Source: a virus. Taken from it: a DNA stretch of 41,528 bases. The translations under genes and the position numbers were made by a program. The DNA lies in the IMG/VR virus record IMGVR_UViG_3300042945_000290. The stretch is one strand, 5' to 3'. Position 1 is the stretch's first letter. Each line of letters starts with the position of its first letter. Below, piece after piece: positions 2,926-41,528 of this stretch. The notes beneath the pieces were generated by a model, which had not been told where the DNA came from, did not search any database, and was given only the letters and a program-made list of their open reading frames with translations.

Positions 2926-3119
2926 GATTGCTCCTCCTTAAAGTCGCCTTCTCTTAGGCGAGTGATTACTTCATCAACAATTTCATTGTAGAAATTGTCT
3001 GTTCGTCCTTGTATTTCATCTATTGCTGAGGATAATTCATCCTCACTAGGCATAGTTGCCTCATCTTCGAACTCGCTCTCGAATAGATAGAGCAGTTGTG
3101 CGTTGGTCATATCACACAT
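2922..3119 (-). CDS. small highly acidic hypothetical protein (65 aa)
   Basis: AAGGAG RBS 7 nt upstream and an 8-nt overlap with the upstream gene. The sequence is Asp/Glu-rich. Confidence 0.7.
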   Translation of the reverse strand: MCDMTNAQLLYLFESEFEDEATMPSEDELSSAIDEIQGRTDNFYNEIVDEVITRLREGDFKEEQS

Positions 3120-3747
3120 TGGCTTTCTCCTTATCTTCTATGGCGTAGCCATTGGCTTCGCACTTGTGTTGGTGTTCATCTTCGTCATACTCATTCCAGT
3201 ATTCCTCGCCGTGTTCCCATTGCTTGCCACATGCGTAGCATTTCTGGGCGAACTCGTTGATTGTTTGACATACACCATTGGTGAACTCAAGTTCACCACC
3301 CCAGCCTGTCTCTTCCTCAAAGTCAAGGTTGAAACTGACATCAGGGTATTGCTCTGAAAGAGCAGTCAATGCTCCTTCAGCAACACCCCAAGGGGTATGG
3401 AATTGGTATTGAAGTGAGGTCTCGTCCGCTTCCGTGAGCTCGCACTCACTGGCGTCCCACTTGACACCCCAATTGTTTATGTTCCAGTTATACCAATTGA
3501 ACTCAGTATCTCCGACCTTTCCGTCTGCGGTATAGCCGTGAGTGCCGTGATACTCACCGAGTTTCTCGGCAGGTGGGCGAATGATGTTCCAAAAAGATAA
3601 ATCTTTTTGAACAGTTTCAGTTATCCACTCATCAGAAGGAAACTTCTGATAGGTAGATTCATAAGGCGCAGATAACTGCGCCTTAATCTTGGCGATTACT
3701 TGAGGCTCAGCCTCAATTAGTAGTGTGTTGTAGCACCAGTTAGGCAT
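3112..3747 (-). CDS. DUF1281/Api92-like ferredoxin-fold protein (211 aa)
   Basis: The N-terminal MPNWCYNTL and internal NNWGVKWDA motifs are characteristic of that family as I recall it. The C-terminal part contains a CYACGK motif and an acidic, His-rich tail. Confidence 0.55.
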   Translation of the reverse strand: MPNWCYNTLLIEAEPQVIAKIKAQLSAPYESTYQKFPSDEWITETVQKDLSFWNIIRPPAEKLGEYHGTHGYTADGKVGDTEFNWYNWNINNWGVKWDASECELTEADETSLQYQFHTPWGVAEGALTALSEQYPDVSFNLDFEEETGWGGELEFTNGVCQTINEFAQKCYACGKQWEHGEEYWNEYDEDEHQHKCEANGYAIEDKEKANV

Positions 3748-11938: not shown

Positions 11939-12097
11939 ATGAGAATCTTAAAGAAATTTGAGGAGAACCTTGAATATTTAGGATTTGATATGGCTCCTGT
12001 TGCTTGGGATCTAGCCCGAATTGATTTTGAAAATGATGATGAAAGATTTACTCTCCTTGAAGAGTTAACAACAAAGGGGAAGGCAATGAATGAGTAA
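11939..12097 (+). CDS. small acidic hypothetical protein (52 aa, not in ORF track)
   Basis: GGGAG RBS. The start directly abuts the upstream stop. Product: MRILKKFEENLEYLGFDMAPVAWDLARIDFENDDERFTLLEELTTKGKAMNE. It overlaps the next gene by 8 nt. Confidence 0.55.
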   Translation: MRILKKFEENLEYLGFDMAPVAWDLARIDFENDDERFTLLEELTTKGKAMNE

Positions 12098-15000: not shown

Positions 15001-17048
15001 CAAGTAAAGAAGTTAGAGATATTATTTTAGAGCGTCCAATTTCAACTGATGAAATAACCGCATTGATGAAGAACCGTCCTGATCTTGCTGAAACAATTGA
15101 AGGACCAAACATCAATCTATCTGACCTTAATAAGGTAGATCGTATTGGTGCTCGAGTAGGCGGTACTACCGATGCTGCTTGGAAGATTCTAGCGGATGCT
15201 GAAACCAAAATGGTTCGTGCTCCATTGTTTAAGAAATACTGGAGTGAAGAACTTAGAACATTAATTACTAATGCTCGTAGAACTGGTGCGGATCCATCAG
15301 ATTATTTTATCAATAATCAACTTAACGATATTGCTAGACGTAAAGCTTTGGCTAGAGTAGAGCAGACACTTTACTCATCTCGCCGTCTTACAAATGGTAT
15401 GTATGCTGCTCGTTATGCAATGAGCTTTCCAGTAGCATTCTTTAACTCACAGGCTGTGGCTCTTCGCTTATTAGCGAAGAACCCTATGAATGCTTATTGG
15501 TATAGCAGTATTACCCAAGCATTAGATGAGTTTGAATCATATGAGGATAAAGAAGGAAACACTTACAAATCTATTAAAGATGTTCCAACTGGAACACCAG
15601 TAACAGTTAAGTTCCCTATTTATAACAAGACACCAGATCAGATAAAATCCATATTGCGACCATTTGTTGATGAACGTGGCGGTGGGCTAAGAGTAAATCC
15701 TAAGCAATTAGAGTTTATGATTGGCGATCCAAGCGTATCTTGGATTGGAAGTGGAACACTTTCCAGTCTAATCAATAATGGTTTTGGTCTTGGAACACCG
15801 TTTAATATTTACGGTGAAGAGATCGACAAGGGTCTACGTAAATTATTTGGTGATGACTTCTACGAGAACAGCGTTCTTTATGGAGGATATCCATCAGAGG
15901 GCAATACACTATTCCATACTTATGCATCAACAATGATGCCAGGATACATGCAATCATTGTTAAAGGTAATTGGTGTTGATAGAGGCGAACGTTGGTTTGA
16001 TGGCGTTGCAGTAAGTTACAAGGCTGCAGTTGCTGAATGGGTTAGAAATGGTGAAGTTGGCGAACCGCCAACCTTTGACCAAGCAGCAAAGAATGAAGGA
16101 TGGATGAACTTCCTCCGTGCTTCAGTTCAATTCTTTTCTCCTATATCAATTACATTTGATCCTGTAACTAGATCAGCAATTGATTATTATGCTAAATTGG
16201 TTGAAGCCAACAAGGGTGATTACGATGCTGCAGATGCTCAGTTTAAAAAAGACTGGGGATATGATGGCTTTGTTTTACTAGGTTCAACAAGAAAGAATGT
16301 TGCTGGTCTTTCATCATCTTACGATGATGTAAAGATTCTTAGAGACAACCCAGATCTTCTAACAAAGATTGCACGTACAAACATGAAGTACGCTGGAATG
16401 CTTTCAACTGGATATGGAAAAGAATTAACCAGTGAGTACTCCTCTGTAGTTGCATCTATCTATAAATATCTAGATTATCCTGGTAAGTCTAAAACGCCTA
16501 TCAGTAGGCAAAAGACTGAAGATGAAGTTCAAAAAGAGGTTGAATCAAACCTTGGTTGGATTGAGTTTAGTAGATTAGAAGAGTTAAGAAACTCACGAAT
16601 GTATGAATTTGGAGTAGGTTCTACCTACGACCCACGATATGAATTAAGTGGAATCCAAGATGATTACAAAGCCAGAGTTGAAGAACTTTCTGTTAAATAC
16701 CCAGGCTGGGCAGATACCCGCAGAGATAACCAAAGAGAGTTTTGGACAGAACTTTTTCCTGTAGTTAAGGTCATTGCAAGTGACATGAACTGGAGAAAGC
16801 AAGCCGACACGGAATCAAATAAATGGGCTGACATTGCTTTGTGGATAGAACAAGCTGAAGCATTTCATAAAAAATATGAAGCTGCTGGAGCAACCGATGC
16901 TATGAGATATGACATGAGAGCATCTTTTTCACAATTCCATTTTGATTTCTTACAAAATGCATCTGATGAGTTTAGTGTATTTGCTACAAGATACTTAAAC
17001 AGTATGCCTGAATTAAATCCAGATCTAGTAATGAGGAGACCTAAATAG
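12090..17048 (+). CDS. Giant virion-module protein (1652 aa), function unknown (candidate internal/ejection protein)
   Basis: A single uninterrupted ORF with a central coiled-coil-like stretch (KFEQAQKEFEKALAVQKKAEAALAKASKANKAK). I recognised no catalytic motif. Confidence 0.85.
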   Translation: MSKWSGWGDTFANEPEIDTPSPVKKFVKEQATEVVDKTKAGKIEAKAGEVLTNVIQKGQEGNIFTRNLTNVALSAMNLASKVIVPITQGASTLALTPQAVARGKGLNSFAYAKEKSKEISMGQAVAAPIGQGIGKFIPGDIGPSFTDEGFDVFNDQQRNKAFKDEWIGIFASGSTDLALATLGTKGARNITSGAKNAVVGPTTVRNGDLTAFRDNLKVTTDWAARADGTPPPNGLAVLVDDAVKETNLTKLAANPLVTETNNPVRTATILSRLNNHDDVADYLLAERGDAAAFTRFMQRQPLEADHIDNFGIKDYAPLSDWDQIKDEHLTPDLTNRYKRIIEAKKAKDKTFASALDDFASMVGEGERVDFVPGKFAKYEQLQLAKNKVKLQAKYGDLKLFGEDGGQGWRSKLYQSNQYERGVRVIAYVGSGRPQGHINISNPRRFEAASDLLSDLNRLQFLRGTEGTQFKRKQVERFLAAQTDTQRAIALAKIEESVFIELGRKYGVNELLDVANPNLAKENAAIIEQISKWVSGKTGRRQTLKKYAVDNGMIPDEQGTINITNNFTSISNEAQTLPMLDFRKLETEIILHVNRELKEGPITPGQVKSARLTQTGMALSQLFDVANMVFSNLNLLRIAYIPKNSIVDPLARASMATESLELFRNAIPAVKNALYNNSVRLTNLSKFVPNMPGNKAYKAEQHALEQIRQISRDKEFPKYIKAWDESKVKFEQAQKEFEKALAVQKKAEAALAKASKANKAKATDAKHAADDLAIEAEENFLSIQTELNRNAHIVQGISSLIEKQRAKVAPGIIARGDKKQQKRLGQVAEQWEIDGKTYTIKGLLDPNQRGSQAYMTEIDTLENFYATGMRSEINNRLRAEGRRFVSIDRADSEAYFNALAHIANRQIRNELELPLGMIMRGDKDGDVLNWIYQSGNAGREWRRRMADRGYTTKDEYITWISETKDKLLTMYPSKEVRDIILERPISTDEITALMKNRPDLAETIEGPNINLSDLNKVDRIGARVGGTTDAAWKILADAETKMVRAPLFKKYWSEELRTLITNARRTGADPSDYFINNQLNDIARRKALARVEQTLYSSRRLTNGMYAARYAMSFPVAFFNSQAVALRLLAKNPMNAYWYSSITQALDEFESYEDKEGNTYKSIKDVPTGTPVTVKFPIYNKTPDQIKSILRPFVDERGGGLRVNPKQLEFMIGDPSVSWIGSGTLSSLINNGFGLGTPFNIYGEEIDKGLRKLFGDDFYENSVLYGGYPSEGNTLFHTYASTMMPGYMQSLLKVIGVDRGERWFDGVAVSYKAAVAEWVRNGEVGEPPTFDQAAKNEGWMNFLRASVQFFSPISITFDPVTRSAIDYYAKLVEANKGDYDAADAQFKKDWGYDGFVLLGSTRKNVAGLSSSYDDVKILRDNPDLLTKIARTNMKYAGMLSTGYGKELTSEYSSVVASIYKYLDYPGKSKTPISRQKTEDEVQKEVESNLGWIEFSRLEELRNSRMYEFGVGSTYDPRYELSGIQDDYKARVEELSVKYPGWADTRRDNQREFWTELFPVVKVIASDMNWRKQADTESNKWADIALWIEQAEAFHKKYEAAGATDAMRYDMRASFSQFHFDFLQNASDEFSVFATRYLNSMPELNPDLVMRRPK

Positions 17049-17794
17049 TGGCTGACGAAACAGGCGTTGAATATAATGTAAATAAAATTTACATTGAAGG
17101 TTTTACTAATAAACCTGGTGGTCGTGGTGCTTCAGTAGCCGAAGCCAAGAATTTTTTTAAAAACCTACGTGAAACAAACTCAGGTGCATACGATGCATTA
17201 AAAAGGGCAGCAGCTGCAAGAGGTTTACCAACCGACCATAAGTCTTTAACAAAGATTATGGACGCTGCCGTTGATTGGACACAAACAATCAACAACCCAT
17301 TAAGAAGTCAAGCAATGGGTATTGACCCAGGCGCATATTTAGATTACATAAAACCTGGATCTATAGACTTTGGCGCACCTAAAGGACCTAAGTATGGAAC
17401 GTCTAAACAGATTACTGAGCAGACAACCCAATACAGCCCATCTTCTGGTGCTCAAACAATCAGTGACACCATGGAGCAAGAACTTGGTCGCACCGCTTCC
17501 GCTGCTGAAATAGCAGCAGGAACAACAGGATTAAACGCTGCAGCACTAAAAGAACCTTCTAGATATGAAGGAACTACAACCACCTCTCCTGGTGGTAAGG
17601 GTATTGCTCTTGGTCAAACTGTTACTAAGGGAACTCAAACAACTGGATTTGATCCAACCATGTTTGCTCGTAACTTTGCTCGCAGCCAACCAGACTTTGC
17701 GGAATCATTTGCTGCTAAAAACTTTTTAAAACTAGTAAGCGGTTTATTAACAGACCCGAATGCTATTGGAGCGGTGGTGGGCGATGGCAGATAA
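17048..17794 (+). CDS. hypothetical virion-module protein (248 aa)
   Basis: GTG start overlapping the upstream TAG by 1 nt. Confidence 0.75.
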   Translation: MADETGVEYNVNKIYIEGFTNKPGGRGASVAEAKNFFKNLRETNSGAYDALKRAAAARGLPTDHKSLTKIMDAAVDWTQTINNPLRSQAMGIDPGAYLDYIKPGSIDFGAPKGPKYGTSKQITEQTTQYSPSSGAQTISDTMEQELGRTASAAEIAAGTTGLNAAALKEPSRYEGTTTTSPGGKGIALGQTVTKGTQTTGFDPTMFARNFARSQPDFAESFAAKNFLKLVSGLLTDPNAIGAVVGDGR

Positions 17795-19037
17795 ATATAC
17801 GGTTAAGTCTGGAGATACGCTTTCCAAGATTGCTGCTGCAAATAAAACAACTGTTGCTAAAATTATTGCTGCCAACCCAGCGTTGACAACAAATCCTAAA
17901 TACAATGGTGGTAACACCATATTTTCTGGAACTAAACTTACCCTTCCTACAACAGTAAAAGATACCAAACCAGTAGTTAATACACCAGGTATTCCACCAG
18001 TAACTAGTGGAACAACAACCAGTTATTCTCCTGGCACCAGCACGGTTGTAGATACTGGCATCTCTTCTACAGGTGCTACCCAAATGGATACTTTATCCAT
18101 GGCAACTTTGCAAGCAAAGTTTGGTATTGCTGCTGCGGTTATTGGATCGGATCAAAGTTTAAAAGATGCCTTGAATAAAATTCTTGGTCTTGATGGTAGC
18201 GGTACCATGATTACCGATCCATCTTTACAGCAACAAATAATTATGGGAACCACATGGTATAAAAACCAGACAGACACCCAACGCAAATACACATACTTTA
18301 AAGAAACAAACCCTGGTCAGTATGCTGCAGATCTACAATTAAATGCAAGCAATATTGTTAAACAGTTTTATGGCAACGGAATAACTATCAGCTCTGCTGA
18401 TGCTATTAAATATGCAGACCAAATGATGCAGCAAGCCATTATTAAAGACGGCAAGGTTATGAGATATGACCAAGACTTCTTGAACAAACTAATGGCTGAC
18501 GCCATTAAGTTTGAAAAAACTAACTCTATTGACGGAAAGGTCATATATGACCTTGATGGAAAATTAGAAACAATGGCTGATGCTTTATACCAAAGGGCTT
18601 ATGACTACGGATATCCAGCCACAACATCAAACGCTGGCTTTACAAAATGGTTTGAAGCTACTGTAAAAGGTTTGGTTGCTGGAACATTGAATCCAGAAGA
18701 TATTGATGACGAGCTAAAGTCTAGAGCAATGTCTTTATTTCCTGGTTTGAAAGATCCAATCATGCGTGGTCAAACATTAAGAGATGCAGCGGATCCATAC
18801 CTAAGTGCAATTGCACAAACATGGGAAGTAGATCCAGATACATTAGATCTTAATAACGACACAGTACAACAGGTTCTTAACTATACAGATGAAAAGGGAA
18901 ACATTGTGCCAATGAATCTTTATGGGGCAAAGAAGACCGCTCGTAGACATTCAAACTTTGATTTCACCGAAACAGCTAAAGAAGAAAAGACAAAGATTGC
19001 ATCGACAATCCTTAAAGATCATGGGTTTCTAGCATGA
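17784..19037 (+). CDS. LysM-domain virion-module protein (417 aa)
   Basis: I chose the ATG at 17784. N-terminal YTVKSGDTLSKIAAANKTTVAKIIAANPALTTNPKYNGGNTIFSGTKLTLP is a LysM domain, followed by a Thr/Ser/Pro-rich linker. Confidence 0.85.
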   Translation: MADKYTVKSGDTLSKIAAANKTTVAKIIAANPALTTNPKYNGGNTIFSGTKLTLPTTVKDTKPVVNTPGIPPVTSGTTTSYSPGTSTVVDTGISSTGATQMDTLSMATLQAKFGIAAAVIGSDQSLKDALNKILGLDGSGTMITDPSLQQQIIMGTTWYKNQTDTQRKYTYFKETNPGQYAADLQLNASNIVKQFYGNGITISSADAIKYADQMMQQAIIKDGKVMRYDQDFLNKLMADAIKFEKTNSIDGKVIYDLDGKLETMADALYQRAYDYGYPATTSNAGFTKWFEATVKGLVAGTLNPEDIDDELKSRAMSLFPGLKDPIMRGQTLRDAADPYLSAIAQTWEVDPDTLDLNNDTVQQVLNYTDEKGNIVPMNLYGAKKTARRHSNFDFTETAKEEKTKIASTILKDHGFLA

Positions 19038-20593
19038 GCGCACAAGACGCAGCAAACTGGGCAAGAACTGTTGGTGCATTTCAAGAAGTATATAAAGCAG
19101 CAACTACTCCTGCACCTGTAGTTCCAAAGCCAGAGGTAAGTTATCGTGTTCAACCTGGTGATACATTAAGCCAGATTGCTAAAAACAATAACACAACTGT
19201 AAAAGAATTGCTTAAAATAAATCCAGCATTAACTAATAATCCTAAGTATGATGGTGGAAGAACTATCTTTTCTAATACAAAGATTGTTTTAGAACCAGCG
19301 GTTAAAGCACCAAAAGTACAAACTACCCCAACTGCACCAACTACCCCAACGACTCCTACAGATCCAACAACCCCTACGGATCCAACAACTCCTACTACAC
19401 CAACGACCCCAACGACCCCAACGACCCCAACAACTCCTACTACACCTACAACACCAACTACACCTACAACTCCTAGTAGTACTGAGTTTGTTAATCCAAC
19501 ATCAGCAGCAACTAATTCAATCAATGATCAACTTGCTGCATTAACAGCACAGATTGCAGCCATGCAAGCTGCAGCAGCTAAACCTGCTGCACCTACTGTT
19601 GCTGGTCAAAAGACTGTTCGTAAAACTGGTGGAGTAGTCGAAGTTTATCAAGTAATGTCTGATGGAACTCTTGGTGCAAAACTAGAAGAGTATAAAGATT
19701 TTGGTGCTCGTGATTCAGTAATGAAAATGTTTGAAAATACTGGATTAGGTCAGGCATACATTGATTCTCTTATGCAATCAATTGATAAAGTTTACGAAGA
19801 AAACATTATGCCAACCGATGCCCAGGTTCTTAATAGTATTTATAATAGCCAGGCTTACAAGACTCGTTTTGCTGCCAATGAGGCAATTAAAAAGCGTATG
19901 GCAGATGGTAAAGGTCGTCCTGGAGACAGACTGCTAACACCATATGAGTACATTCAAACCGAAAAGGCATATGAGGAAATCCTTAGAGAAGCAGGTCTTC
20001 CTACTGGTTTCTATGACCAGCAAGAAGATTTTACTAATTTCATTGCTTTGGGTGTAAGCACGGCAGAGTTAACAGATCGTGTAAACATAGCAAGGAATGC
20101 TTTAAATAATGCTGATCAAGGAATCAAAACAGCACTTAAAGATTTCTATGGTTTAACAGATCAAGATTTAACAGCCTATCTTCTTGATAAAGATAGAGCA
20201 ATTAATGTTATTGATTCTAGATTTAAGTACACAACCGAAGAAGCCAAGAAGATGTATACATCTGCAGAGATTGGTGGAGCAGCACTACGTGCTGGTCAAA
20301 TGTCTGATAAAGCTTTTGCGGAAGAAATTTATGGTGCTGGTAAAGCAGGTCAAGCAGAGTCTGCATTCCAGACCGCTGCTGCTCAGCAAAAAGATTACCA
20401 ACGCTTAATGAGTTTGTATGGAGAAACTGCTGGATCACAAGATGTTGCTCGTGAAGAGTTAGCACTTGCTGGTGGAACAGAAGTAACCATGAAGAAGAAG
20501 AGACTTGCCTCTCAAGAAAGAGCCAAGTTCCAACAAAGATCTGCAATTGACACGTCGTCTCTTGGACGCCGTGATAAAACAACAAATATATAA
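19034..20593 (+). CDS. LysM-domain virion-module protein with Pro-Thr repeat linker (519 aa)
   Basis: YRVQPGDTLSQIAKNNNTTVKELLKINPALTNNPKYDGGRTIFSNTKIVLEP is a LysM domain. It is followed by a (TTP/TDP)n tract. Confidence 0.85.
   Translation: MSAQDAANWARTVGAFQEVYKAATTPAPVVPKPEVSYRVQPGDTLSQIAKNNNTTVKELLKINPALTNNPKYDGGRTIFSNTKIVLEPAVKAPKVQTTPTAPTTPTTPTDPTTPTDPTTPTTPTTPTTPTTPTTPTTPTTPTTPTTPSSTEFVNPTSAATNSINDQLAALTAQIAAMQAAAAKPAAPTVAGQKTVRKTGGVVEVYQVMSDGTLGAKLEEYKDFGARDSVMKMFENTGLGQAYIDSLMQSIDKVYEENIMPTDAQVLNSIYNSQAYKTRFAANEAIKKRMADGKGRPGDRLLTPYEYIQTEKAYEEILREAGLPTGFYDQQEDFTNFIALGVSTAELTDRVNIARNALNNADQGIKTALKDFYGLTDQDLTAYLLDKDRAINVIDSRFKYTTEEAKKMYTSAEIGGAALRAGQMSDKAFAEEIYGAGKAGQAESAFQTAAAQQKDYQRLMSLYGETAGSQDVAREELALAGGTEVTMKKKRLASQERAKFQQRSAIDTSSLGRRDKTTNI
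19321..19476 (+). repeat. In-frame tandem 9-nt (Pro-Thr-Thr) repeat tract
   Basis: Iterated ccaacgacc/cctactaca units encode TTPTAPTTPTTPTDPTTPTDPTTPTTPTTPTTPTTPTTPTTPTTPTTP. Confidence 0.9.
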
Positions 20594-24362: not shown

Positions 24363-25940
24363 ATGCCATCACCATCACGTTACTACAGTTCTACCGCTGC
24401 CAAGACAACCTTGGCTAATTCTATTTCCAATGTGTCTACAAGTCTTGAACTTGCAGCAGCAACAAACTTACCCGCTCAATATCCTTATACGCTTATCCTT
24501 GAAAAGGATACAGCCAATGAAGAGATCGTCGAAGTTACCAGTCTTGTAGGAACCGCCTACCAGATCACACGTAACATAGATAACTCAGGTGCTAAGTCAC
24601 ACTCAGTTGGTGCTCTTGTAGAGCATGGTGTATCAGCAAGAGACTTTACAGAATCTCGTGCTCATGAAGTTGCAACTACTGCACATGGTGTAACTGGAGA
24701 TGTGGTTGGTACTGGTGGCGCACAAACCCTTACAAGTAAAACTTTAACTACACCGATTATTGCTGGTGCTACCATATCTGGAGCATTCACATCTACCGCA
24801 ACAATTACTGGTGGAACTATTACTGGTGCGGTGGTAACTGGTCTTGCTACACCAACTGCTACATCAGACGCTGCTACTAAAGGATACATTGATACATCTG
24901 TAAATAGTGCTGCAGCCTCTGCTTCATCCGCTGCTATATCTGCATCTTCTGCTTTAACATCAGCCTCATCTGCATCAACCTCAGCAGCCAGCGCATTAAC
25001 TAGCCAAACTGCTGCAGCTTCTAGTGCAACCGCTGCTGCTACCTCAGCAGCGAGCGCAGCAACATCTGCAAGCACTATGGCTGCAAGTGTTAGCTCGGCA
25101 CAAACAAGTGCATCAAGTGCAGCGACAAGTGCTGCCTCTGCTTTAACATCACAAACTTCGGCAGCAACATCTGCAACAAGTGCTGCCACTTCGGCTACAT
25201 CTGCTGCCAATAGTGCTACTGCTGCTGCATCATCTGCAACTACTGCTGCTGCATCTGTTGCAACGATTGCTGGTTATGCATCCGCTGCTGCGGCATCTGA
25301 AGCCAATGCTTTAACAAGTGCTAACTCGGCAGCCACATCAGCATCTAGTGCTGCTACTTCAGCATCTACTATGGCAGCCAGTGTTACATCTGCTGGTATA
25401 TCAGCAAGTTCGGCTGCAACGAGTGCGTCATCTGCACAAACATCGGCAACTGCTGCAGCTACTTCGGCTGCTAGTGCGTCAACATCCGCATCCTCTGCTT
25501 TAACTAGCCAAGGATCAGCAGCTACTTCTGCTTCTTCTGCTTTAACTTCTCAAACCGCTGCAGCAACTAGTGCAACTAGTGCTGCAACATCAGCATCATC
25601 AGCATTGACATCTCAAACATCGGCTGCCACATCTGCCACATCTTCAGCAGCAAGCGCAACGCTTGCCTCTGAATGGGCAACCAAAACTACTGGCACGGTA
25701 GATGGAACTGAATACTCTGCTAAGTATTATGCATCTATCGCTAACCCTGCTGGTGCAATTAACGCAGCAAGTTTTACCGCTAAGGGTGTAACCCTTGTCG
25801 GAACAGGTGTTGGAACATTCACCCAGCTTTCCGCTGGAACGAATAACCAATACCTAGTCGTAGATACTTCTACGGCAACTGGTCTGAAGTACATAACACT
25901 TCCAGATCCGATTTCACCGCTACTACTGATGGGAGCCTAA
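24363..25940 (+). CDS. Tail fibre protein with long Ala/Ser/Thr repeat shaft (525 aa)
   Basis: N-terminal EEIVEVTSLVGTAYQITRNIDNSGAKSHSVGALVEHGV and HGVTGDVVGTGGAQTLTSKTLTTP are fibre-like. They are followed by about 250 aa of SAATSASSALTSQT-type repeats. Confidence 0.75.
   Translation: MPSPSRYYSSTAAKTTLANSISNVSTSLELAAATNLPAQYPYTLILEKDTANEEIVEVTSLVGTAYQITRNIDNSGAKSHSVGALVEHGVSARDFTESRAHEVATTAHGVTGDVVGTGGAQTLTSKTLTTPIIAGATISGAFTSTATITGGTITGAVVTGLATPTATSDAATKGYIDTSVNSAAASASSAAISASSALTSASSASTSAASALTSQTAAASSATAAATSAASAATSASTMAASVSSAQTSASSAATSAASALTSQTSAATSATSAATSATSAANSATAAASSATTAAASVATIAGYASAAAASEANALTSANSAATSASSAATSASTMAASVTSAGISASSAATSASSAQTSATAAATSAASASTSASSALTSQGSAATSASSALTSQTAAATSATSAATSASSALTSQTSAATSATSSAASATLASEWATKTTGTVDGTEYSAKYYASIANPAGAINAASFTAKGVTLVGTGVGTFTQLSAGTNNQYLVVDTSTATGLKYITLPDPISPLLLMGA
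24900..25670 (+). repeat. In-frame degenerate tandem repeats (Ala/Ser/Thr heptad-like) in the fibre gene
   Basis: Iterated gct/gca/tct/act-rich units. The long antisense ORF 24662..25210 is a composition artefact of these repeats. Confidence 0.85.
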
Positions 25941-29578: not shown

Positions 29579-31486
29579 GTGGCAACGACCAACAAATATC
29601 TTAAAGGCGATCTGCCTATTGTTATTAGTACCAATATCCCTACTGCATTGGTTAGATACCAACGTGATGACTTTGCTGCTAGTTATGCAATAGGTAATAC
29701 CCCTTGGCTTTCAGCTGCATCTGACGACAATCGCATTAGTCGTATTACTACGACATATCAAAAAGAACGTATCGATCAAAGCTCTACTACTGGTGAGCAA
29801 TCTCTTACTAACTGGTGGTTAAGATCTGCTACATCATGGCACCATGGTGCTGGTGAAAGATTCTATGACGCTGACTCAAGCGACTTGTTTAGATTCTACG
29901 AATCAAACAATATAGATCCATGGACTCTTGGCGAGATTCAATTACTACCAGCTACCACTAACTTAAGCACCGCTGCTGCAAGCAGTCCTGCTACCGTGGC
30001 GGGTGGAACATTTTTTATATCAGGTGGTAACGTACATTTTTATAATGGAACTACATCCACATCTACATCTTTGGGAACATCAGCAACCGCACAGACATTA
30101 ACATCAGATGGTACCTTTGCAATTGTTGGTGCTAGTAATGGTATCTATCAGGTGAGCACAGCCTTGGCTGTGACTAAATTATGGAACAAACCAACCGCAG
30201 TAACAACACAAACCGTTCAATCAATTGGTTATGTTAAAGATCGTATTGTTGCTGGCATTAAACATGATAATACTGATATGCATTTATATGAATTATCTCG
30301 CAACCCGAGCTCCCCTCCTGCCACTATGTCGAATTCAGAAGTTAGATTTACTTACCCAAATACATCATTAACATTTAATTCTATATCAGAATTACCTGGT
30401 GCTATTATAGTTGGATACACACAGGGAACAGTATCTAAAGTACAGTCTTATACAATTAATCCGTCATCACCATTAGCTGCAATTAGTGATCCTAGTATTA
30501 TCGCAGAATTACCTAGAGGTGAAACATTAAATCAAATTCGTTTATACTTAAACGAGTTTGTTATTCTTGCTACAACTAAAGGTGTTCGTGTAGGAATAGT
30601 ATCAACAGATAATGCATCATTTACATATGGACCGCTTAATGTAGAAGGCGATGTCAAGGACATAGCCTTCAATGAATCTTATGTATATGCATGTAGATCT
30701 GAATTGTATTCTGGCTCCGCTGGGTTATGGCGTTTAAATCTAGGTCAAGCCGTCGGCAGTGGTTATGCTTATGCATCCGATCTTGTAACAGATAGTAATG
30801 TTCCCAATGGTGTTGCTTTCATTGGAACATCTGGAAGAAAATTTATTACATCAGCTTCTGGTGTATGGATAGAATCGGCAACAGTTAAAGCCACATCTGG
30901 TTATTTAAAATCTGGATGGATTCGATGGGGAACCTCAGAAAAAAAGCAACCAGTTAATCTTACATTGTCATCTATGCCTGAAACTGGTGGAGTTTTAGGT
31001 ATGGAAGTTGTTGATCAGACAGATCAATCTATATCTATTGGTTCCTTACCTTTGGGGCAATCAGTTGAAATTGGATTGTCTGGATCTATTCAACCAGCAG
31101 ATCATTTTGAAATTACATTTAACTTTACACGCAGTACATCAGATACTACTAAGTCACCAATACTTGAGACTTGGCAGATACGTGCATTACCTGCACCGTT
31201 AAGATCAAGAACACTTACGATACCATTACTATGTTATGAAGAAGAAAGAGACCCTAATGGAAATGTTAAACACTCAAACCCATGGGAGAGAATCTCTTAC
31301 CTTGAACGTATTGAACAAAATGGTGGAGCAGTCTTATACCAAGACTTTTCAAGTGGAGAAGAAAGAGTCTGTGTTATCCGTGCTATTCAGTTTGAGCAAG
31401 CAGCACCTCCCACTTTTGCGAGCGGGTTTGGAGGAATAGTAACTATTCAGTTGCAAACTATTGATACTGAAATTGCTATTCAATGA
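29579..31486 (+). CDS. large hypothetical protein (635 aa), virion/tail or cell-wall associated
   Basis: GTG start with an AGGGG RBS. I recognised no motif. It lies between the endolysin and the PG-binding protein. Confidence 0.8.
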   Translation: MATTNKYLKGDLPIVISTNIPTALVRYQRDDFAASYAIGNTPWLSAASDDNRISRITTTYQKERIDQSSTTGEQSLTNWWLRSATSWHHGAGERFYDADSSDLFRFYESNNIDPWTLGEIQLLPATTNLSTAAASSPATVAGGTFFISGGNVHFYNGTTSTSTSLGTSATAQTLTSDGTFAIVGASNGIYQVSTALAVTKLWNKPTAVTTQTVQSIGYVKDRIVAGIKHDNTDMHLYELSRNPSSPPATMSNSEVRFTYPNTSLTFNSISELPGAIIVGYTQGTVSKVQSYTINPSSPLAAISDPSIIAELPRGETLNQIRLYLNEFVILATTKGVRVGIVSTDNASFTYGPLNVEGDVKDIAFNESYVYACRSELYSGSAGLWRLNLGQAVGSGYAYASDLVTDSNVPNGVAFIGTSGRKFITSASGVWIESATVKATSGYLKSGWIRWGTSEKKQPVNLTLSSMPETGGVLGMEVVDQTDQSISIGSLPLGQSVEIGLSGSIQPADHFEITFNFTRSTSDTTKSPILETWQIRALPAPLRSRTLTIPLLCYEEERDPNGNVKHSNPWERISYLERIEQNGGAVLYQDFSSGEERVCVIRAIQFEQAAPPTFASGFGGIVTIQLQTIDTEIAIQ

Positions 31487-33520: not shown

Positions 33521-34354
33521 ATGCGTACCTTACTGCAGGTAGTAGGGGTCGAATCTCCAGCAGGGCATGCCCTACCTGAGATTCTCCCTCAACTCACTGG
33601 TAACCAAGTTGTATTCCGTCAGGCACAACTACACTTGGTAGCAGCACAACCAGGTGGTGGCAAAACCATGCTTGCTTTATGGTACGCAATTACATCCAAG
33701 ACCCCAGCATTATATTTTTCAGCAGACTCCGACTCACGGACGATTGCCCTTCGTGCAGGTGCGATCCTAATGGACAAGTCGGTAACTGATGTTGAAAGAA
33801 TGATGGACTCGGAAGCATCTGTCCTCCTAGAAGATGCACTGGCTGATGGTGCTGCACATGTTCGATTTAGTTTTGATCCCTCTCCTTCTTTGCAAGATAT
33901 TGAAGAAGAGATAGAAGCTTGGATTGAATTGCACGGTGCTCCACCCTCAGCAATTTATATTGATAACTTAATGAATGTCGCTGCAGTCAGTGACAATGAA
34001 TGGACAGCATTGCGTGATGCAATGTCTGCTTTTCATTACATGGCTAGAGAATATGAATCAGCATTCATAGTTCTACATCATGTGTCTGAGAACGAAAAGA
34101 TGTCTAAGCCTAACTATCCAGCACCACGAAAGGCTTTGATGGGTAAGGTGTCAGCCTTACCTGAATTAGTATTAAGTGTGGCATTAGATGCCATTGGTAA
34201 TGTATATCGAGTTGCAGTTGTAAAGAATCGCCATGGTAAGGCAGATCCAACTGCAGAAAATTATGTAACTTTATCTGTTGAACCAAGTCATATGAGTTTG
34301 TATAACTCACCTGCTGAATTACAAAGAGCAAGGACGCTTCGACAATGGCAGTAA
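33521..34354 (+). CDS. DnaB-like/RecA-fold replicative helicase-type ATPase (277 aa)
   Basis: Walker A AAQPGGGKT, Walker B AIYIDNL and FIVLHHVSEN. It lacks the DnaB N-terminal domain. Confidence 0.7.
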   Translation: MRTLLQVVGVESPAGHALPEILPQLTGNQVVFRQAQLHLVAAQPGGGKTMLALWYAITSKTPALYFSADSDSRTIALRAGAILMDKSVTDVERMMDSEASVLLEDALADGAAHVRFSFDPSPSLQDIEEEIEAWIELHGAPPSAIYIDNLMNVAAVSDNEWTALRDAMSAFHYMAREYESAFIVLHHVSENEKMSKPNYPAPRKALMGKVSALPELVLSVALDAIGNVYRVAVVKNRHGKADPTAENYVTLSVEPSHMSLYNSPAELQRARTLRQWQ

Positions 34355-35494: not shown

Positions 35495-35872
35495 ATGCGG
35501 TTGATTGCAATGACCGTAACAACGGTGATGCTTCTATTGATATCACCAGCAAGAGCGGACTCTCCGTTAATGACCTTGGAACATCGTATAGCTACACTGG
35601 ACAAGGAAGAGGCGTTGGAGTTGGCTCTAACTACAGTAACAACAGACAAGAAAGAAGCTGCTTGTGCGAAGAAGATTGCGTACAAGGAGAGCCGTTACAA
35701 CATCGACTCGTACAACAAATCGAGTGGAGCACGTGGAGTTTGGCAGTTACTCTGGGCAAAACCAGGTTGGTCAATACTCAAACAAACATCAGAAGCACAC
35801 AAGTATGTGCTTCATCGGTACGGAACTTGGTGCAAGGCGTTCGAGTTCCATCAAGAAAGGAATTGGTATTAA
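35495..35872 (+). CDS. Secreted lytic-transglycosylase (SLT)-like protein (125 aa)
   Basis: Signal peptide MRLIAMTVTTVMLLLISPARA, then AYKESRYNIDSYNKSSGARGVWQLL, matching the SLT pattern of a catalytic E-S followed by S-G-A-x-G-x-x-Q. AGAGG RBS. Confidence 0.65.
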   Translation: MRLIAMTVTTVMLLLISPARADSPLMTLEHRIATLDKEEALELALTTVTTDKKEAACAKKIAYKESRYNIDSYNKSSGARGVWQLLWAKPGWSILKQTSEAHKYVLHRYGTWCKAFEFHQERNWY

Positions 35873-36202
35873 ATGAATCAACCTGAATTTCTTGAAGCAG
35901 TGTTTAATCATTATGGTTTAACCTTGCCACAAGGGGAGAAGTCTATTCTCTGTCCAGTGCATGATGACTCTCGTAAATCTGCTTCAGTTAATTCAGAGAA
36001 GGGCGTCTGGGTATGTTATGCATGTCATGGCAGTGGCTCTGGTATACAGATAGTCATGGCTCGTGAGAACCTAACATACTCAGAAGCTCGCAAGTGGGCT
36101 GATACTCACATAGGAGCAGAGAAGAGTAAAGAGTTTGCCACGCCAGTGCGTGGCAGACGACGAACAAACGGACGGTGGACACCACCAAGATTGCGTAAGT
36201 GA
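35873..36202 (+). CDS. DnaG-type primase CHC2 zinc-finger domain protein (109 aa)
   Basis: CPVHDDSRKSASVNSEKGVWVCYACHGSGSGIQIV matches the CHC2 finger. Confidence 0.7.
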   Translation: MNQPEFLEAVFNHYGLTLPQGEKSILCPVHDDSRKSASVNSEKGVWVCYACHGSGSGIQIVMARENLTYSEARKWADTHIGAEKSKEFATPVRGRRRTNGRWTPPRLRK

Positions 36203-36735
36203 TGACAACTATAATTGGTATACAAAGAGCAGATCATTGTGTCATTGCTGCAGACTCACGCACTACCACTGAAAAGGGTAGACCTTATTCTCATCCGATC
36301 ATTACAAAGATTACCAAGCGTGGTAAGTATTTAATTGCTGGAGCTGGTACAACTATGCCATGCGATACGATTCAACATATTTGGAAACCGCCAGCACTAC
36401 CACCTTCTACTAAAGATCAATATCATTTTATGATTACAGATATAGTACCAAGCATGCGTGAGTCTTTAAAAGATAATGGTTGGGTGCCAGACGATAAGTC
36501 TGAAGATTATGAATTTTTATTTTTAATTGCGGTTAATGGAATTATCTATGAGATAGATGATACCTTCTCGGTATTTCTTCGTGACGATGGGGTATATGGG
36601 ATAGGATCTGGATCTTCATATGCAGTTGGAGCAATTCAACAAGGCGCAACATGGCGCAAGGCGTTGCAAATAGCAGCAAAGAATGATGTGTATACTGCAC
36701 CTCCATTCATAATGCACAGGCAGGAGAAGAAGTAA
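36202..36735 (+). CDS. HslV/proteasome-beta-like Ntn-hydrolase (peptidase T1 family, 177 aa)
   Basis: The ATG at 36202 gives M-TTIIGIQRADHCVIAADSRTT. Together with KYLIAGAGTT, GIGSGSSYAVGA and IAAKNDVYT, this is colinear with E. coli HslV ([51 protein letters not shown]). Confidence 0.75.
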   Translation: MTTIIGIQRADHCVIAADSRTTTEKGRPYSHPIITKITKRGKYLIAGAGTTMPCDTIQHIWKPPALPPSTKDQYHFMITDIVPSMRESLKDNGWVPDDKSEDYEFLFLIAVNGIIYEIDDTFSVFLRDDGVYGIGSGSSYAVGAIQQGATWRKALQIAAKNDVYTAPPFIMHRQEKK

Positions 36736-36941
36736 TGGGAAGACTGAGTGTATATACAGGGTTTAATCGCACCTATTGCTGGGGCTTGGGGTTTGAATAC
36801 CATACTATGGTGTCAGCCTATGAAGATCTGGATTCTCTTGACATCATTGAGTATGTAGATGCTCGTGTATTAAGAATAGATCTAGTAATATTTTATATTA
36901 ACTTTACTTTATGGGCGAAGCAGGAGTGGGATGAGAACTAA
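36735..36941 (+). CDS. hypothetical protein (68 aa)
   Basis: TAATG overlap with the HslV-like gene. Confidence 0.6.
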   Translation: MGRLSVYTGFNRTYCWGLGFEYHTMVSAYEDLDSLDIIEYVDARVLRIDLVIFYINFTLWAKQEWDEN

Positions 36942-37575
36942 TCCAAAGCTAATTGAACTCTGGACTAGAGCAGCAAAGCAATACCACGAGAGCCTTGCTG
37001 GTTCACCAGCAGAGGCTTATCTAAAAGAGCGTGGGATTCTTGATGGTGCTAGTAAGTTCATGCTTGGATATGTATCAGAGGTAGCACCTGGTCATGAGGA
37101 TAGACTTAAGAATCACCTGTCTATTCCATACATAACCGAGGCTGGCGTAGTTGGATTTAAGTTCCGCCGTATAGATGGTGGCGACCCTAAGTACATGATA
37201 CCTACTGGTCAGAAGCACCACCTATATAATGTTGATGCAATACTTAATGCCATTAACAAAGTACTAATAGTAGAAGGAGAAATAGATGCAATCAGTGCAA
37301 CACTTATTGGTCATCCTGCTGTCGCTGTTGCAGGAGTTAACGCTTGGAAGCCTCACTTTGCTCGTTGCTTTGATGGGATAGGTACAGTAGTAATCTGTAC
37401 CGATAATGATGCCAAAGAAGATGGCTCAAATCCTGGGCAAGAATTGGCTAGGAGATTACAAGATGCAATACCACAGGCTGTCCGTGTGTCGCTACCGCCT
37501 GACAGTGATGTTAATAGTATAATTTGTACCCAAGGAGCACAAGCATTGACTGACCTAGTCAATGCAATTAACTAA
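36931..37575 (+). CDS. DnaG-type primase catalytic/TOPRIM domain protein (214 aa)
   Basis: AYLKERGI...FMLGYV linker motif, VLIVEGEIDAIS (ExxD) and VVICTDNDAKEDGSNPG (DxD). AGGAG RBS. Confidence 0.75.
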   Translation: MRTNPKLIELWTRAAKQYHESLAGSPAEAYLKERGILDGASKFMLGYVSEVAPGHEDRLKNHLSIPYITEAGVVGFKFRRIDGGDPKYMIPTGQKHHLYNVDAILNAINKVLIVEGEIDAISATLIGHPAVAVAGVNAWKPHFARCFDGIGTVVICTDNDAKEDGSNPGQELARRLQDAIPQAVRVSLPPDSDVNSIICTQGAQALTDLVNAIN

Positions 37576-38811: not shown

Positions 38812-38984
38812 TGCCAACATTTGATTTTAAATGCAACAACTGCGAATCAGTTGTTGAACTGATCGTCACTGACGATCCGTTTCCTAAGTGTGAGAGATGT
38901 GATATGACTCTTACTAAAGTATTTACGCCACCTGCTATTCATTTCAAAGGTGGGGGATGGGGTGGTGAACATGTCAAAAGCTAA
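38811..38984 (+). CDS. FmdB-family zinc-ribbon protein (57 aa, not in ORF track)
   Basis: MPTFDFKCNNCESVVELIV...FPKCERCDMTLTKVFTPPAIHFKGGGW matches the MPxYxYxCxxC...CPxC...FKGSG pattern. TAATG overlap. Confidence 0.7.
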   Translation: MPTFDFKCNNCESVVELIVTDDPFPKCERCDMTLTKVFTPPAIHFKGGGWGGEHVKS

Positions 38985-39720
38985 TAGTAGCCAATATCCT
39001 GATGGCAGAATCATGCTTGGTTGGTGTGACAACGGTAATGTTGATGGCAAGTTTACCGAAGGACTTGTGTACACAATTCTAACTAGCGGTATACCCATTG
39101 CTGGCGCAGCCAGAGTTCAAGGTAACCAGATCGGACGCCAGCGTGAGCAGTTGTTTGACATGTGGCACAAGAAGACAGACTTTGATTGGATGCTTTGGGT
39201 TGACTCAGACATTGTGCTTACCAATGAAAGCCTAAGAAAAGTTTGGGATTCAGTTCATGCTGAGGATAGACCCATAGTAAGTGGTACTTATTTTATTTCC
39301 AAGCAGATGGAAAGTTCGATCATGATGCCACATGCTTGTCTGTTCATGGCAGATGATGGAGATGACAAATACACAATGAGATGGATTCATCCTTTACCAA
39401 AGGATGAATTACTTAAGGTTGATTATGCTGGCTTCGGTTTCCTACTTATGCATCGATCAGTTGCCGATAAGATGAGAGCATTCCATGGAGATACTGCTTT
39501 GTTTATGGAATCTTCTGGTGCTGTTGGAGATAAAGATACATTCATTGGTGAGGACATCCAGTTCTTCATGAAGATGAAGGAGGCTGGGATTCCATTACAT
39601 GCACACACTGGCGCAACAGTTAAACATATGAAACGATTCTCATTTGATGAGGACTATTACAAGTTGTATTGGGTCACGCACATAGCTGCAGAGGCGCATG
39701 AAAAAAAGGCGGAGGCATAA
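38971..39720 (+). CDS. GT-A-type glycosyltransferase (249 aa)
   Basis: MLWVDSDIVL (DxD) and IVSGTYF. I chose the internal ATG at 38971. Confidence 0.6.
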   Translation: MSKANSSQYPDGRIMLGWCDNGNVDGKFTEGLVYTILTSGIPIAGAARVQGNQIGRQREQLFDMWHKKTDFDWMLWVDSDIVLTNESLRKVWDSVHAEDRPIVSGTYFISKQMESSIMMPHACLFMADDGDDKYTMRWIHPLPKDELLKVDYAGFGFLLMHRSVADKMRAFHGDTALFMESSGAVGDKDTFIGEDIQFFMKMKEAGIPLHAHTGATVKHMKRFSFDEDYYKLYWVTHIAAEAHEKKAEA

Positions 39721-40593: not shown

Positions 40594-40819
40594 TTGCTGT
40601 CTCCTCTGGAGATAGAACCACAATGTCTACCATTGCTTCCTCTGCCTCCTGATGTATGTCCGACTCTATAAGTTCGGGCTGGTCTTTCTCACCTGCATAA
40701 ATATGCAGGTGATCTAGAGCCTTGATTATATAGTTAGCAACACGAACGGATATGCTTGGTTGTGCATATGGCGTTGGATTATCCAGCGCATCTGCATATT
40801 TTTGTAATGGATTCTCCAT
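40586..40819 (-). CDS. hypothetical acidic protein (77 aa)
   Basis: TAATG overlap with the DUF932-like gene. Confidence 0.75.
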   Translation of the reverse strand: MENPLQKYADALDNPTPYAQPSISVRVANYIIKALDHLHIYAGEKDQPELIESDIHQEAEEAMVDIVVLSPEETANG

Positions 40820-41528
40820 TAGATTCCTTTCGTTAGTAGGTCAAGAGCTTTGCTCTTAATACGGTCAGCCGAACCAGTGATGATGCGCTCGGCTCTAACT
40901 GAATCAGCCTTGTGACTGTAGTGATCTGCATACTCCACGATAGATTGGAACACACCGAACCTAGTTCCATTTAGTTCTTCCTGAGTACCAGTCTCACCAC
41001 GATAGATTGCTTTAGCAGTAGCACGAGCCACTGTTGCTGAGTTGTACTGACGCTTCTGTCCTGCACTTAGCAGTGCATAAGGTGAGTTCTCAATGATGTT
41101 TGGTATAGACCACATCTTATTAAAGATGGCATCCACTTCTGCATCTGAGATCTTCTCGTTGATAAGTTTGTTACCGATAAGTTCGTAGAACTTGATACCT
41201 TCATAGGTAACTGGGATGATGCGCTTGATATCTTCGATCTTGAACTCAGCATTGGTTGTGTGCTTGAGTGTGTATGTACCAGTCTTAGCGAAGATGCCAG
41301 CAATCTGATTAGTGCAGCGTAATCTAGTTACACTAGGTGATATCTGCAGTGCAGTTGAACCATCATGGGAAGTTCTTGCTACAAGGTAGCAAGCATGTGG
41401 ATCATTGGCTATCTTAACTTCGTTAGGTAGCTCGAGCACCATGTATACCTGCGCTCCACCTTTAACCTCACCAGCAAATGCATACCTTGCATCTCCTGAA
41501 TCAACCAGTGCATCTAGACCTGAGAACA
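40819..41528 (-). CDS. DUF932-like phage/plasmid protein, C-terminal part (frame open to the window end; N-terminus at 398..1)
   Basis: The track's MVLELPNEV start is an internal Met, and the frame continues through the 127-bp repeat. SPSVTRLRCTNQI and YTLKHTTNA are typical of the family as I recall it. Confidence 0.7.
   Translation of the reverse strand, partial: FSGLDALVDSGDARYAFAGEVKGGAQVYMVLELPNEVKIANDPHACYLVARTSHDGSTALQISPSVTRLRCTNQIAGIFAKTGTYTLKHTTNAEFKIEDIKRIIPVTYEGIKFYELIGNKLINEKISDAEVDAIFNKMWSIPNIIENSPYALLSAGQKRQYNSATVARATAKAIYRGETGTQEELNGTRFGVFQSIVEYADHYSHKADSVRAERIITGSADRIKSKALDLLTKGI
41402..41528. repeat. Terminal direct repeat, copy 2
   Basis: Identical to 1..127. Confidence 0.95.

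Follow-up and report, generated by a model that had tools for sequence, protein, structure and literature searches.

A proteasome-like peptidase gene between the separate zinc-finger and TOPRIM genes of a probable freshwater actinophage primase

We analysed the viral DNA IMGVR_UViG_3300042945_000290 of the IMG/VR collection, a stretch of 41,528 nucleotides (nt) that is referred to in full as the window. Between positions 35,873 and 37,575, a gene for a primase zinc finger (ZnF) and a gene for the catalytic, TOPRIM-bearing part of a DnaG-type primase are separated by two other open reading frames (ORFs), the first of which encodes a homologue of HslV and of proteasome beta subunits. We consider it probable that this is the two-subunit primase of a freshwater actinophage whose subunits were ancestrally encoded by separate ORFs, and that the old junction between them now serves as a cargo slot, which holds a threonine peptidase cassette in a functionally neutral position.

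Results

The zinc-finger and TOPRIM genes are ancestrally separate

An earlier note, made from the sequence of the window alone, had described the first ORF as a CHC2 primase zinc finger only and the second as a separate TOPRIM ORF with its own AGGAG ribosome-binding site. Both descriptions were correct. The sole domain detectable in the ZnF ORF was Zn_ribbon_DnaG of Pfam (3.2e-11; 43.3 bits against a cut-off of 24.9), and the ORF also matched PHROG 360, "DNA primase" (2e-22). The TOPRIM ORF matched Toprim_3 (5.7e-10; 39.9 versus 27.2 bits), Toprim_2 (5.3e-09), PHROG 47 (8e-33), PHROG 849 (1.6e-30) and positions 210-358 of the TIGR01391 dnaG model. In an alignment of eight sequences, the residues of its EGExD and DxD motifs (E115, G116, E117, D119, D158 and D160) were invariant, and the TOPRIM ORFs had their own start Met, all at the same alignment column.

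The same note had explained the arrangement by a once-fused ZnF-TOPRIM gene that was split at its domain boundary when the peptidase cassette inserted, and had proposed a search for unsplit relatives. DnaG-type primases are generally fused, as are PHROG 47 (947 amino acids, aa) and PHROG 849 (435 aa), and the window's primase parts lie 728 nt apart with foreign genes between them. We fetched 80 IMG/VR loci with TOPRIM relatives of 35-89% identity and located their ZnF, TOPRIM and peptidase ORFs with profile hidden Markov models (HMMs); both primase halves were visible in 79. No fused ZnF-TOPRIM ORF was found among these 79 loci. Instead, the two ORFs overlapped by 101-191 nt in 74 of them, with TOPRIM always in the +1 frame, compared to a gap of +728 nt in the window. 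Four loci had the order ZnF-peptidase-TOPRIM, and one (L044) had a 786-nt gap holding three unrelated ORFs.

Two primase ORFs were also present in the phage records that we examined. Using tblastn, the TOPRIM subunit matched 1,501 phage records, chiefly of Mycobacterium, Streptomyces and Propionibacterium/Cutibacterium phages, and in most of the best 40 of these, two "DNA primase" annotations lay under the match. Overlapping primase ORFs are annotated in LoneWolf (g61/60; Mycobacterium), Kaine (g39/40; Streptomyces) and PHL114L00 (gp31/30; Propionibacterium); in these three the annotated overlaps span about 165-310 nt. The overlap in such actinophage pairs is about 150-190 nt, or about 310 nt as annotated in PHL114L00. 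Phage E7 of 'Ca. Planktophila' has the same module, with a 152-nt primase overlap and no insert, and stand-alone ZnF subunits of about 133 aa make up PHROGs of their own (360 and 2304).

The separate, overlapping ORFs in a conserved +1 frame relation, the conserved TOPRIM start Met and the lack of a fused form together imply that the split is ancestral to this primase family and was not caused by the cassette, and we regard fission of a fused gene as extremely unlikely. The part of the earlier claim that stands is that genes lie between the primase parts, unlike in nearly all relatives. The comparison indicates that the cassette landed in, or was moved to, a gene junction that already existed. 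In an overlap-duplication test on six clade members, residual nucleotide similarity between the 3' end of the ZnF gene and the 5' end of the TOPRIM gene scored the same as shuffled controls.

With 728 nt and two genes between them, the ZnF and TOPRIM parts must act as separate polypeptides in this phage, since a frameshift fusion is impossible. The clade with the opened junction is therefore natural evidence that the two-ORF primase, widespread among actinophages, functions with its subunits as separate polypeptides. Programmed frameshift joining of the halves is not needed, which bears on the records that list two "DNA primase" genes, and primase halves working apart fit the known in-trans action of primase zinc-binding domains.

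Several side observations were made on the ZnF subunits. In the window, the subunit ends in a clade-specific tail, GRWTPPRLRK; the form G(R/K)RW(T/I)PP(R/S)LR is common to the opened-junction clade (window positions 36170-36199, L009, L012, L015 and L044). ZnF subunits of the overlapping type have instead a longer, low-complexity basic tail, which is encoded in the overlap. The conserved tail may serve to dock the ZnF subunit onto the TOPRIM subunit or the helicase. In PHL114L00, gp31 (L006, 1958-2464; "putative DNA primase" in RefSeq) does not align with ZnF subunits (12% identity), and the HMM places the ZnF in the stop-to-stop segment 1884-2315 of L006; the annotated frame or start of gp31 is probably wrong. 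In L048, 5' of a normal TOPRIM ORF, a RusA-like resolvase appears to be fused in one ORF (1002-1607) to a zinc-finger part that keeps only the second CxxC half-site. Possible explanations of this fusion are a degenerate ZnF subunit and an artefact of assembly or of a frameshift.

The intervening gene encodes a predicted threonine peptidase

The first gene between the primase subunits had been read as HslV/proteasome-like, with a Thr directly after the start Met and equivalents of Asp17, Lys33 and the GSG motif. Its product matched PHROG 1040, "peptidase HslV family", over residues 1-176 (5.7e-25). A profile built from 39 homologues (32-79% identity) matched 130 proteasome, HslV and BPH sequences of the PDB at E <= 0.01, with BPH at the top (1.9e-11), HslV at 6e-10 and proteasome beta5 at about 1e-7; in each of BPH, HslV and beta5, mature residue 1 was aligned with the Thr that follows the start Met. 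Residues T2, T3, D18, K36, G49, G135 and G137 were invariant in the 39 homologues, and S136 was conserved in at least 90%, with Thr as the alternative (a G-S/T-G motif). Aligned to the BPH and HslV positions, the invariant columns are the equivalents of Thr1, Asp17, Lys33, Gly47 and G-S/T-G. All 39 homologues begin M/V-T-T and have no propeptide, so removal of the Met would expose Thr1. An alternative GTG start at 36199 would yield MMTT; since all homologues begin MTT, the ATG at 36202 is the start.

Of the checks proposed in the earlier note, structure prediction returned the expected proteasome-beta/HslV fold. The AlphaFold2 (AF2) model, made from an alignment in which two GenBank-locus rows were left out, had a predicted local distance difference test score (pLDDT) of 95 and a predicted TM score (pTM) of 0.90. 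Foldseek ranked BPH first (TM 0.78/0.75; root mean square deviation, 3.7), followed by HslV (about 0.68; probability, 1.00) and then 20S beta subunits, and a structural match in BFVD reached TM 0.90. The profile HMM check gave a divided answer: PHROG 1040 and the PDB BPH and HslV sequences were matched, but curated models were below their cut-offs. The Pfam family Proteasome (PF00227) scored 18.7 bits against a gathering threshold of 22.4, over residues 2-50 only; many homologues carry a precomputed PF00227 match. The HslV equivalog models NF003964 and TIGR03692 scored 25.7 and 25.6 bits against cut-offs of 137 and 157.75, so far under these thresholds that the protein is not an HslV orthologue. 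By these comparisons it is to be placed among the compact group I proteasome homologues of Fuchs et al. (HslV, BPH, AAH, CPH and PPH).

The ratio of nonsynonymous to synonymous substitution rates (dN/dS) of the peptidase gene was 0.05 against a 93%-identical relative. Given the invariant catalytic set, this strong constraint and the confident fold near BPH and HslV, the protein is likely to be an active peptidase, and it is probably a self-compartmentalised one. A non-proteolytic use of the N-terminal nucleophile (Ntn) fold, whether as a connectase-like ligase or transpeptidase or as a non-catalytic assembly factor, would be in keeping with the presence of the ligase connectase among proteasome homologues, with the view of Fuchs et al. 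(2021; PMC8665760) that new homologues may have unprecedented assemblies or functions, and with the fact that even BPH has no known substrate. However, the window peptidase groups with group I (BPH/HslV), of which the characterised members are peptidases, and its complete proteasomal catalytic set is invariant. We consider a non-proteolytic role very unlikely.

The primase junction holds variable cargo and the peptidase gene also lies at other sites

Besides the window, the peptidase gene lies between the primase subunits in L007-L012, L015/16, L023/24, L027 and L040-43. In this opened-junction clade of freshwater actinophages, the primase halves are 0.5-2.2 kb apart and the peptidase is accompanied in the slot by zero to five further genes. 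It is alone in L009-11 and L040-43, and is joined by one small ORF in the window, L023 (68 aa), L024 (71 aa, homologous) and L008 (82 aa, unrelated). In L012 and L015/16, a PDDEXK_14-type ORF precedes it and two to four ORFs follow. The slot of L044 (3681-4511) has no peptidase and contains three ORFs, one acidic (68 aa), one transglycosylase-like (143 aa) and one Cys-rich (59 aa).

Conversely, the peptidase gene is not confined to this junction. It directly follows TOPRIM, next to an intact overlapping primase pair, in L048, L045, L052 and L054; in L048 it is ATGA-coupled to TOPRIM, and its product is 65% identical to that of the window, compared to only 47% for the L048 TOPRIM. The gene is about 1.2 kb downstream of TOPRIM in L051 and about 4 kb upstream in nine loci (L055, L057, L061-65, L069 and L071). 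Homologues were also found after the portal gene in E7/F5, between terminase and portal in L018 (with a metallophosphoesterase-like partner), beside WhiB in phages of more than 129 kb (L017 and DSL-LC01), beside lysis and HNH genes in L013, and among small early genes in Microbacterium phages. The position is thus not specific to the peptidase: the slot carries other cargo or extra genes, and sister phages keep the peptidase elsewhere.

In a neighbour-joining (NJ) tree, all copies located between the primase genes fell into one deep-branched clade in which L048 and L013 were nested, with the after-portal copy as sister. Synonymous divergence (dS) from L023 was 0.84 for the peptidase gene and 0.93 for the 68-aa ORF, about twice the values of the flanking ZnF (0.40) and TOPRIM (0.36) genes, which suggests that the cassette is exchanged by recombination independently of its flanks. 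Taken together, the tree and the dS values suggest that the arrangement is old and that the peptidase gene was afterwards relocated or exchanged by recombination. Its place between the primase genes is best understood as an inherited variant of gene order with no functional link to priming.

A functional linkage would mean that the peptidase works on or with the replisome, through turnover of the ZnF subunit, remodelling of the primase-helicase complex, or clearance of host replication and transcription proteins. The linkage to primase recurs, between the subunits or directly after TOPRIM as in L048, and gp116 of the Erwinia jumbo phage RAY, an HslVU-family accessory protein, localises to the phage nucleus together with replication and transcription proteins (bioRxiv 10.1101/2023.02.24.529968). 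Nevertheless, homologues of 31-55% identity lie in unrelated contexts (portal, terminase, lysis/HNH, WhiB, small early genes), the slot also carries unrelated cargo, and RAY is a very distant system. We judge such a role to be unlikely.

The same survey of positions bears on the idea that the protein is a prohead (head-maturation) protease or a scaffold-degrading enzyme of an unrecognised Ntn type. The E7/F5 homologue directly follows terminase and portal, the classical position of such proteases, the L018 copy lies between these two genes, and scans of the window detected no prohead protease of a conventional type. Many podovirus-like phages, however, have no prohead protease at all. The Microbacterium phage LeeroyJenkins, whose homologue (gene 16) sits with small non-structural genes, also encodes a capsid maturation protease of the conventional kind (gene 25), which makes a prohead-protease role unlikely as the general function. 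In addition, most copies lie in replication modules, and the protein has no extension for procapsid targeting. The peptidase ORF had no match in Pfam or PHROGs to the HK97-type S78, ClpP-type S14 or S49 families of prohead proteases. We give this role only a slight chance.

The metallophosphoesterase-like ORF seen in L018 is about 385 aa long and always stands 5' of the peptidase gene in a distant subfamily of 209-216 aa (L017, 3747-4922; L018, 3847-4998). The two copies of this ORF are 70% identical despite their unrelated genomes, a 131-kb phage with the pair beside WhiB and a terminase/portal module, and the pair looks like a mobile two-gene cassette. This partner was the only conserved neighbour of the peptidase that we found; it occurs with the distant subfamily only and was not present in the window's clade.

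The four genes form a coupled unit

The features of the locus are listed in Table 1. That two coupled ORFs lie between the primase parts, as the earlier note had stated, is borne out by the overlaps: the ZnF stop codon TGA (36200-36202) overlaps the peptidase ATG (TGATG), the peptidase stop codon TAA overlaps the ATG of the 68-aa ORF at 36735 (TAATG), and the 68-aa ORF and the TOPRIM ORF overlap by 11 nt. No terminator-like site was found on the plus strand within the four-gene block, and promoter-like sites were fewer than in shuffled sequences. Based on the junction overlaps and the lack of an internal terminator, the four genes seem to form a single translationally coupled unit in the replication module, with which they are apparently co-transcribed.

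Table 1. Features of the primase-peptidase locus and of the upstream helicase gene (window positions)
Feature	Position	Strand	Basis
DnaB-like replicative helicase, start of the conserved replication module	33521..34354	+	PHROG 243 (1e-74); Pfam AAA_25/DnaB_C
Primase zinc-finger subunit, CHC2 zinc ribbon only, 109 aa	35873..36202	+	Zn_ribbon_DnaG; PHROG 360; alignment with stand-alone ZnF subunits of relatives
TGATG stop/start overlap, ZnF subunit to peptidase gene	36200..36204	+	Read from the sequence
Proteasome-beta/HslV-fold N-terminal-threonine peptidase homologue, 177 aa	36202..36735	+	PHROG 1040; PDB profile; AF2; Foldseek
Lineage-restricted ORF, 68 aa	36735..36941	+	AGGAG 9 nt upstream; dN/dS 0.19
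AGGAG ribosome-binding site, 4 nt 5' of the TOPRIM subunit ATG	36922..36926	+	Read from the sequence
Primase catalytic subunit, short DnaG-type RNA-polymerase core with TOPRIM, 214 aa	36931..37575	+	Toprim_3; Toprim_2; PHROG 47; PHROG 849

The 68-aa ORF, which had been called an orphan, matched no family in Pfam, PHROGs, NCBIfam or PADLOC. It is conserved in L023 (76%) and L024 (49%) and is absent or replaced in L009 and L008. The PADLOC defence models likewise gave no match for the peptidase, and the primase parts matched only the DnaG-like domains of DRT models in that collection.

The window is a complete genome of a probable Nanopelagicales phage

An exact direct repeat of 127 nt at both ends (1-127 and 41402-41528) indicates that the phage genome is complete in the window, its unique sequence amounting to about 41.4 kb. 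Its structural genes encode a terminase, a portal, a 1652-aa virion protein, a major head protein and tail fibres. The replication and regulation module comprises an exonuclease, the DnaB-like helicase, WhiB (5e-19), a RusA-like resolvase, a transglycosylase and the primase region, together with a DUF1599 protein, an endonuclease VII and a sigma factor. Helicase genes lie upstream of the primase pair in the relatives as well.

The region had no megablast match among GenBank phages, and its relatives are detectable at the protein level only. The nearest in GenBank are phages E7 and F5 (OX376640 and OX376641), which were isolated on 'Ca. Planktophila' LanE-43, a freshwater actinobacterium of the acI/Nanopelagicales group (PMC10202952). 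In addition, a peptidase homologue with 79% identity lies on a contig binned to 'Ca. Nanopelagicus' (metagenome-assembled genome, MAG). Because of these two relationships, the host is probably a low-GC freshwater actinobacterium, acI/Nanopelagicales-like; the WhiB gene of the window is a further lead to such a host. A literature search returned no report on a proteasome in Nanopelagicales. Among about 400 annotated coding sequences of 'Ca. Planktophila' LanE-43, a coverage too small to be informative, none was named as a proteasome, ClpX, ClpP, HslU, Pup or ClpC gene.

Further observations concern the rest of the genome. The 1652-aa ORF (12090-17048) matches PHROG 10618 (unknown function) end to end (4e-286), has no Pfam domain and probably encodes a large virion-internal or ejection protein. 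A 635-aa ORF (29579-31486) that matches PHROG 11667 (unknown function) heads the replication module. It was considered as a hidden ATPase and rejected, having no Pfam match, no PDB sequence match and no Walker A motif. It may encode a highly divergent DNA polymerase, given that no such enzyme could be recognised in the genome. LysM or transglycosylase/endolysin-like segments occur in four separate ORFs (9871-11511, 17760-19037, 19034-20593 and 35495-35872), the last of which encodes a 125-aa transglycosylase (PHROG 35836, 6e-42) directly 5' of the ZnF primase gene. A 9-nt tandem repeat (19310-19479) encodes a Pro/Thr-rich linker in a 519-aa ORF, and repeats with a 21-nt periodicity (25013-25617) encode Ala/Ser/Thr-rich sequence in a tail-fibre ORF. 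Genes on the minus strand flank the terminal repeat (1761-2483, 3112-3747 and 40819-41442), and among them are matches to Pfam GP88 (1e-52), a DUF1281_C/Api92-like domain and DUF932 (4e-21). The sigma factor is followed by a weak family-2 glycosyltransferase (38950-39720, plus strand); glycosyltransferases were also reported in the E7/F5 phage paper (PMC10202952).

No partner unfoldase was detected in the genome

The earlier note had found neither an HslU-type unfoldase nor a proteasome alpha subunit, and this held for the complete genome: PHROG and Pfam scans of ORFs of at least 100 aa detected no AAA+ unfoldase, HslU or alpha subunit. The only genuine Walker A motif of the genome, at 33644, belongs to the DnaB-like helicase. 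No unfoldase was found next to the peptidase gene in more than 20 homologous loci. The idea of the earlier note that the peptidase borrows a host AAA+ enzyme is speculative.

A bolder proposal is that the peptidase is a near-core, replication-phase gene of freshwater actinophages whose product forms a viral 20S-like core docking on the host ARC/Mpa, ClpX or ClpC. If so, host proteolysis, for example the Pup pathway, would be redirected to host shut-off, recycling of amino acids in oligotrophic, genome-streamlined hosts or destruction of defence proteins, and this would be the first functionally defined viral proteasome. We rate this proposal as improbable.

Related peptidases are abundant in phages

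The earlier note had called a stand-alone proteasome-like peptidase "not a standard phage module", which is overstated. Stand-alone phage proteasome homologues were catalogued by Fuchs, Alva and Lupas in 2021 (PMC8665760), PHROG 1040 is a family of this kind, and HslV genes unaccompanied by HslU have been noted in a Salmonella jumbo phage (PMC7823757). Using tblastn, we found homologues annotated "protease" or "HslV" in Microbacterium, Arthrobacter, Actinomycetia, Vibrio, Pseudoalteromonas, Xanthomonas and Methanobacterium viruses, and BFVD contained 44 viral structural matches. In the protein collection, about 100 clusters at 90% identity were found, many of them named "HslVU peptidase subunit" by JGI; some have hundreds of member sequences. 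An exhaustive profile search over 50%-identity clusters returned 125 at E <= 1e-30 and 4,808 at E <= 1e-10, and in nearly all of the 150 clusters listed the alignment started from residue 1. In a scan of a genome collection, all close relatives lay on short, phage-like MAG contigs, and the matches in cellular genomes, at 23-27% identity, are probably BPH-like.

Fuchs et al. found no Actinobacteria-specific phages encoding AAH, and Table 1 of their paper lists no HslV in Actinobacteria (PMC8665760). The homologues collected here show that proteasome homologues of this kind are abundant in actinophages, and the family fills the gap noted in 2021.

Discussion

Our results favour an ancestral two-ORF primase with a later cargo slot at its junction. 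In the course of events that we propose, the junction between the ZnF and TOPRIM genes was opened in an old sublineage and became a slot, which in the window would hold a two-gene cassette of the proteasome-like peptidase and a small ORF. Because the four genes are coupled and apparently co-transcribed with the replication module, the peptidase would be made alongside the replication proteins. A Met aminopeptidase would then expose Thr1, and the protein may assemble into a double ring like that of HslV or BPH, with the active sites inside. Peptides or unfolded proteins of host or phage might be degraded there during the replication phase with no phage-encoded unfoldase, the peptidase acting by itself, as BPH apparently does, or together with an AAA+ enzyme of the host.

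Several points weigh against this account and should be set beside it. All of its functional elements (activity, oligomer, substrate and timing) rest on homology, and BPH, the closest solved structure, is itself without a known substrate (PMC5777263). The survey of primase loci was seeded with the window's own TOPRIM family and has no bearing on fused primases in unrelated phages. The NJ tree is a rough one that lacks support values, and the host assignment is indirect. Finally, the peptidase gene is found beside or within the primase pair in several arrangements, which keeps a tie to the replisome as a live minority alternative.

The peptidase is a member of a very large phage-borne branch of the proteasome family, with about 4,800 clusters at 50% identity and under strong purifying selection; some of its clusters turn up hundreds of times in lake metagenomes. 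Cultured systems in which it can be approached by deletion and biochemistry now exist, namely the 'Ca. Planktophila' phages E7 and F5 and the Microbacterium and Arthrobacter phages.

The closest known relative by profile and structure is BPH (PDB 5OVS/5OVT/5OVU), with which the peptidase shares the Thr at mature position 1 and a compact subunit; no partner unfoldase is known for BPH (PMC5777263). The two proteins are only about 20-24% identical, however, and BPH is a cellular gene of stress-regulated operons, whereas the window peptidase and its close homologues lie on phage genomes or phage-like contigs. The tetradecameric double ring, acidic cavity and elongated pore loop are features of BPH; the structure prediction for the window peptidase covered the monomer. 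HslV (ClpQ; MEROPS T1B) has the same fold, the MTT start, a Thr1 exposed by Met removal and the same Asp17, Lys33 and GSG equivalents. Its cognate HslU, in contrast, is absent from the window genome, and actinobacterial hosts generally have no HslUV. HslV forms a dodecameric double hexameric ring.

The group I phage homologues of Fuchs et al. (PPH, AAH and CPH) and PHROG 1040 resemble the window peptidase in being stand-alone, compact, carried by Caudoviricetes and radiating from BPH and HslV; a stand-alone phage gene of this type is an already known kind. The window peptidase matches Vibrio and Pseudoalteromonas phage proteins of about 142 aa that fit the description of PPH (25-32% identity), but PPH is about 140 aa long and occurs in Caudoviricetes and proteobacterial prophages, compared to 177 aa and actinobacterial hosts here.

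The primase in turn resembles the two-ORF primase of Mycobacterium cluster A, Streptomyces and Propionibacterium/Cutibacterium phages, with 31-35% identity in the ZnF subunit and up to 44% in TOPRIM, and with the same neighbourhood of DnaB-like helicase, Holliday-junction resolvase, primase pair, endonuclease VII and sigma factor. It differs in that the two ORFs are 728 nt apart with two genes between them, whereas the known pairs overlap. The locus is thus a tidy variant in which two kinds already known, the two-ORF primase of actinophages and the proteasome homologues borne by phages, stand in an unusual gene order, and not a new system; current concepts are unchanged.

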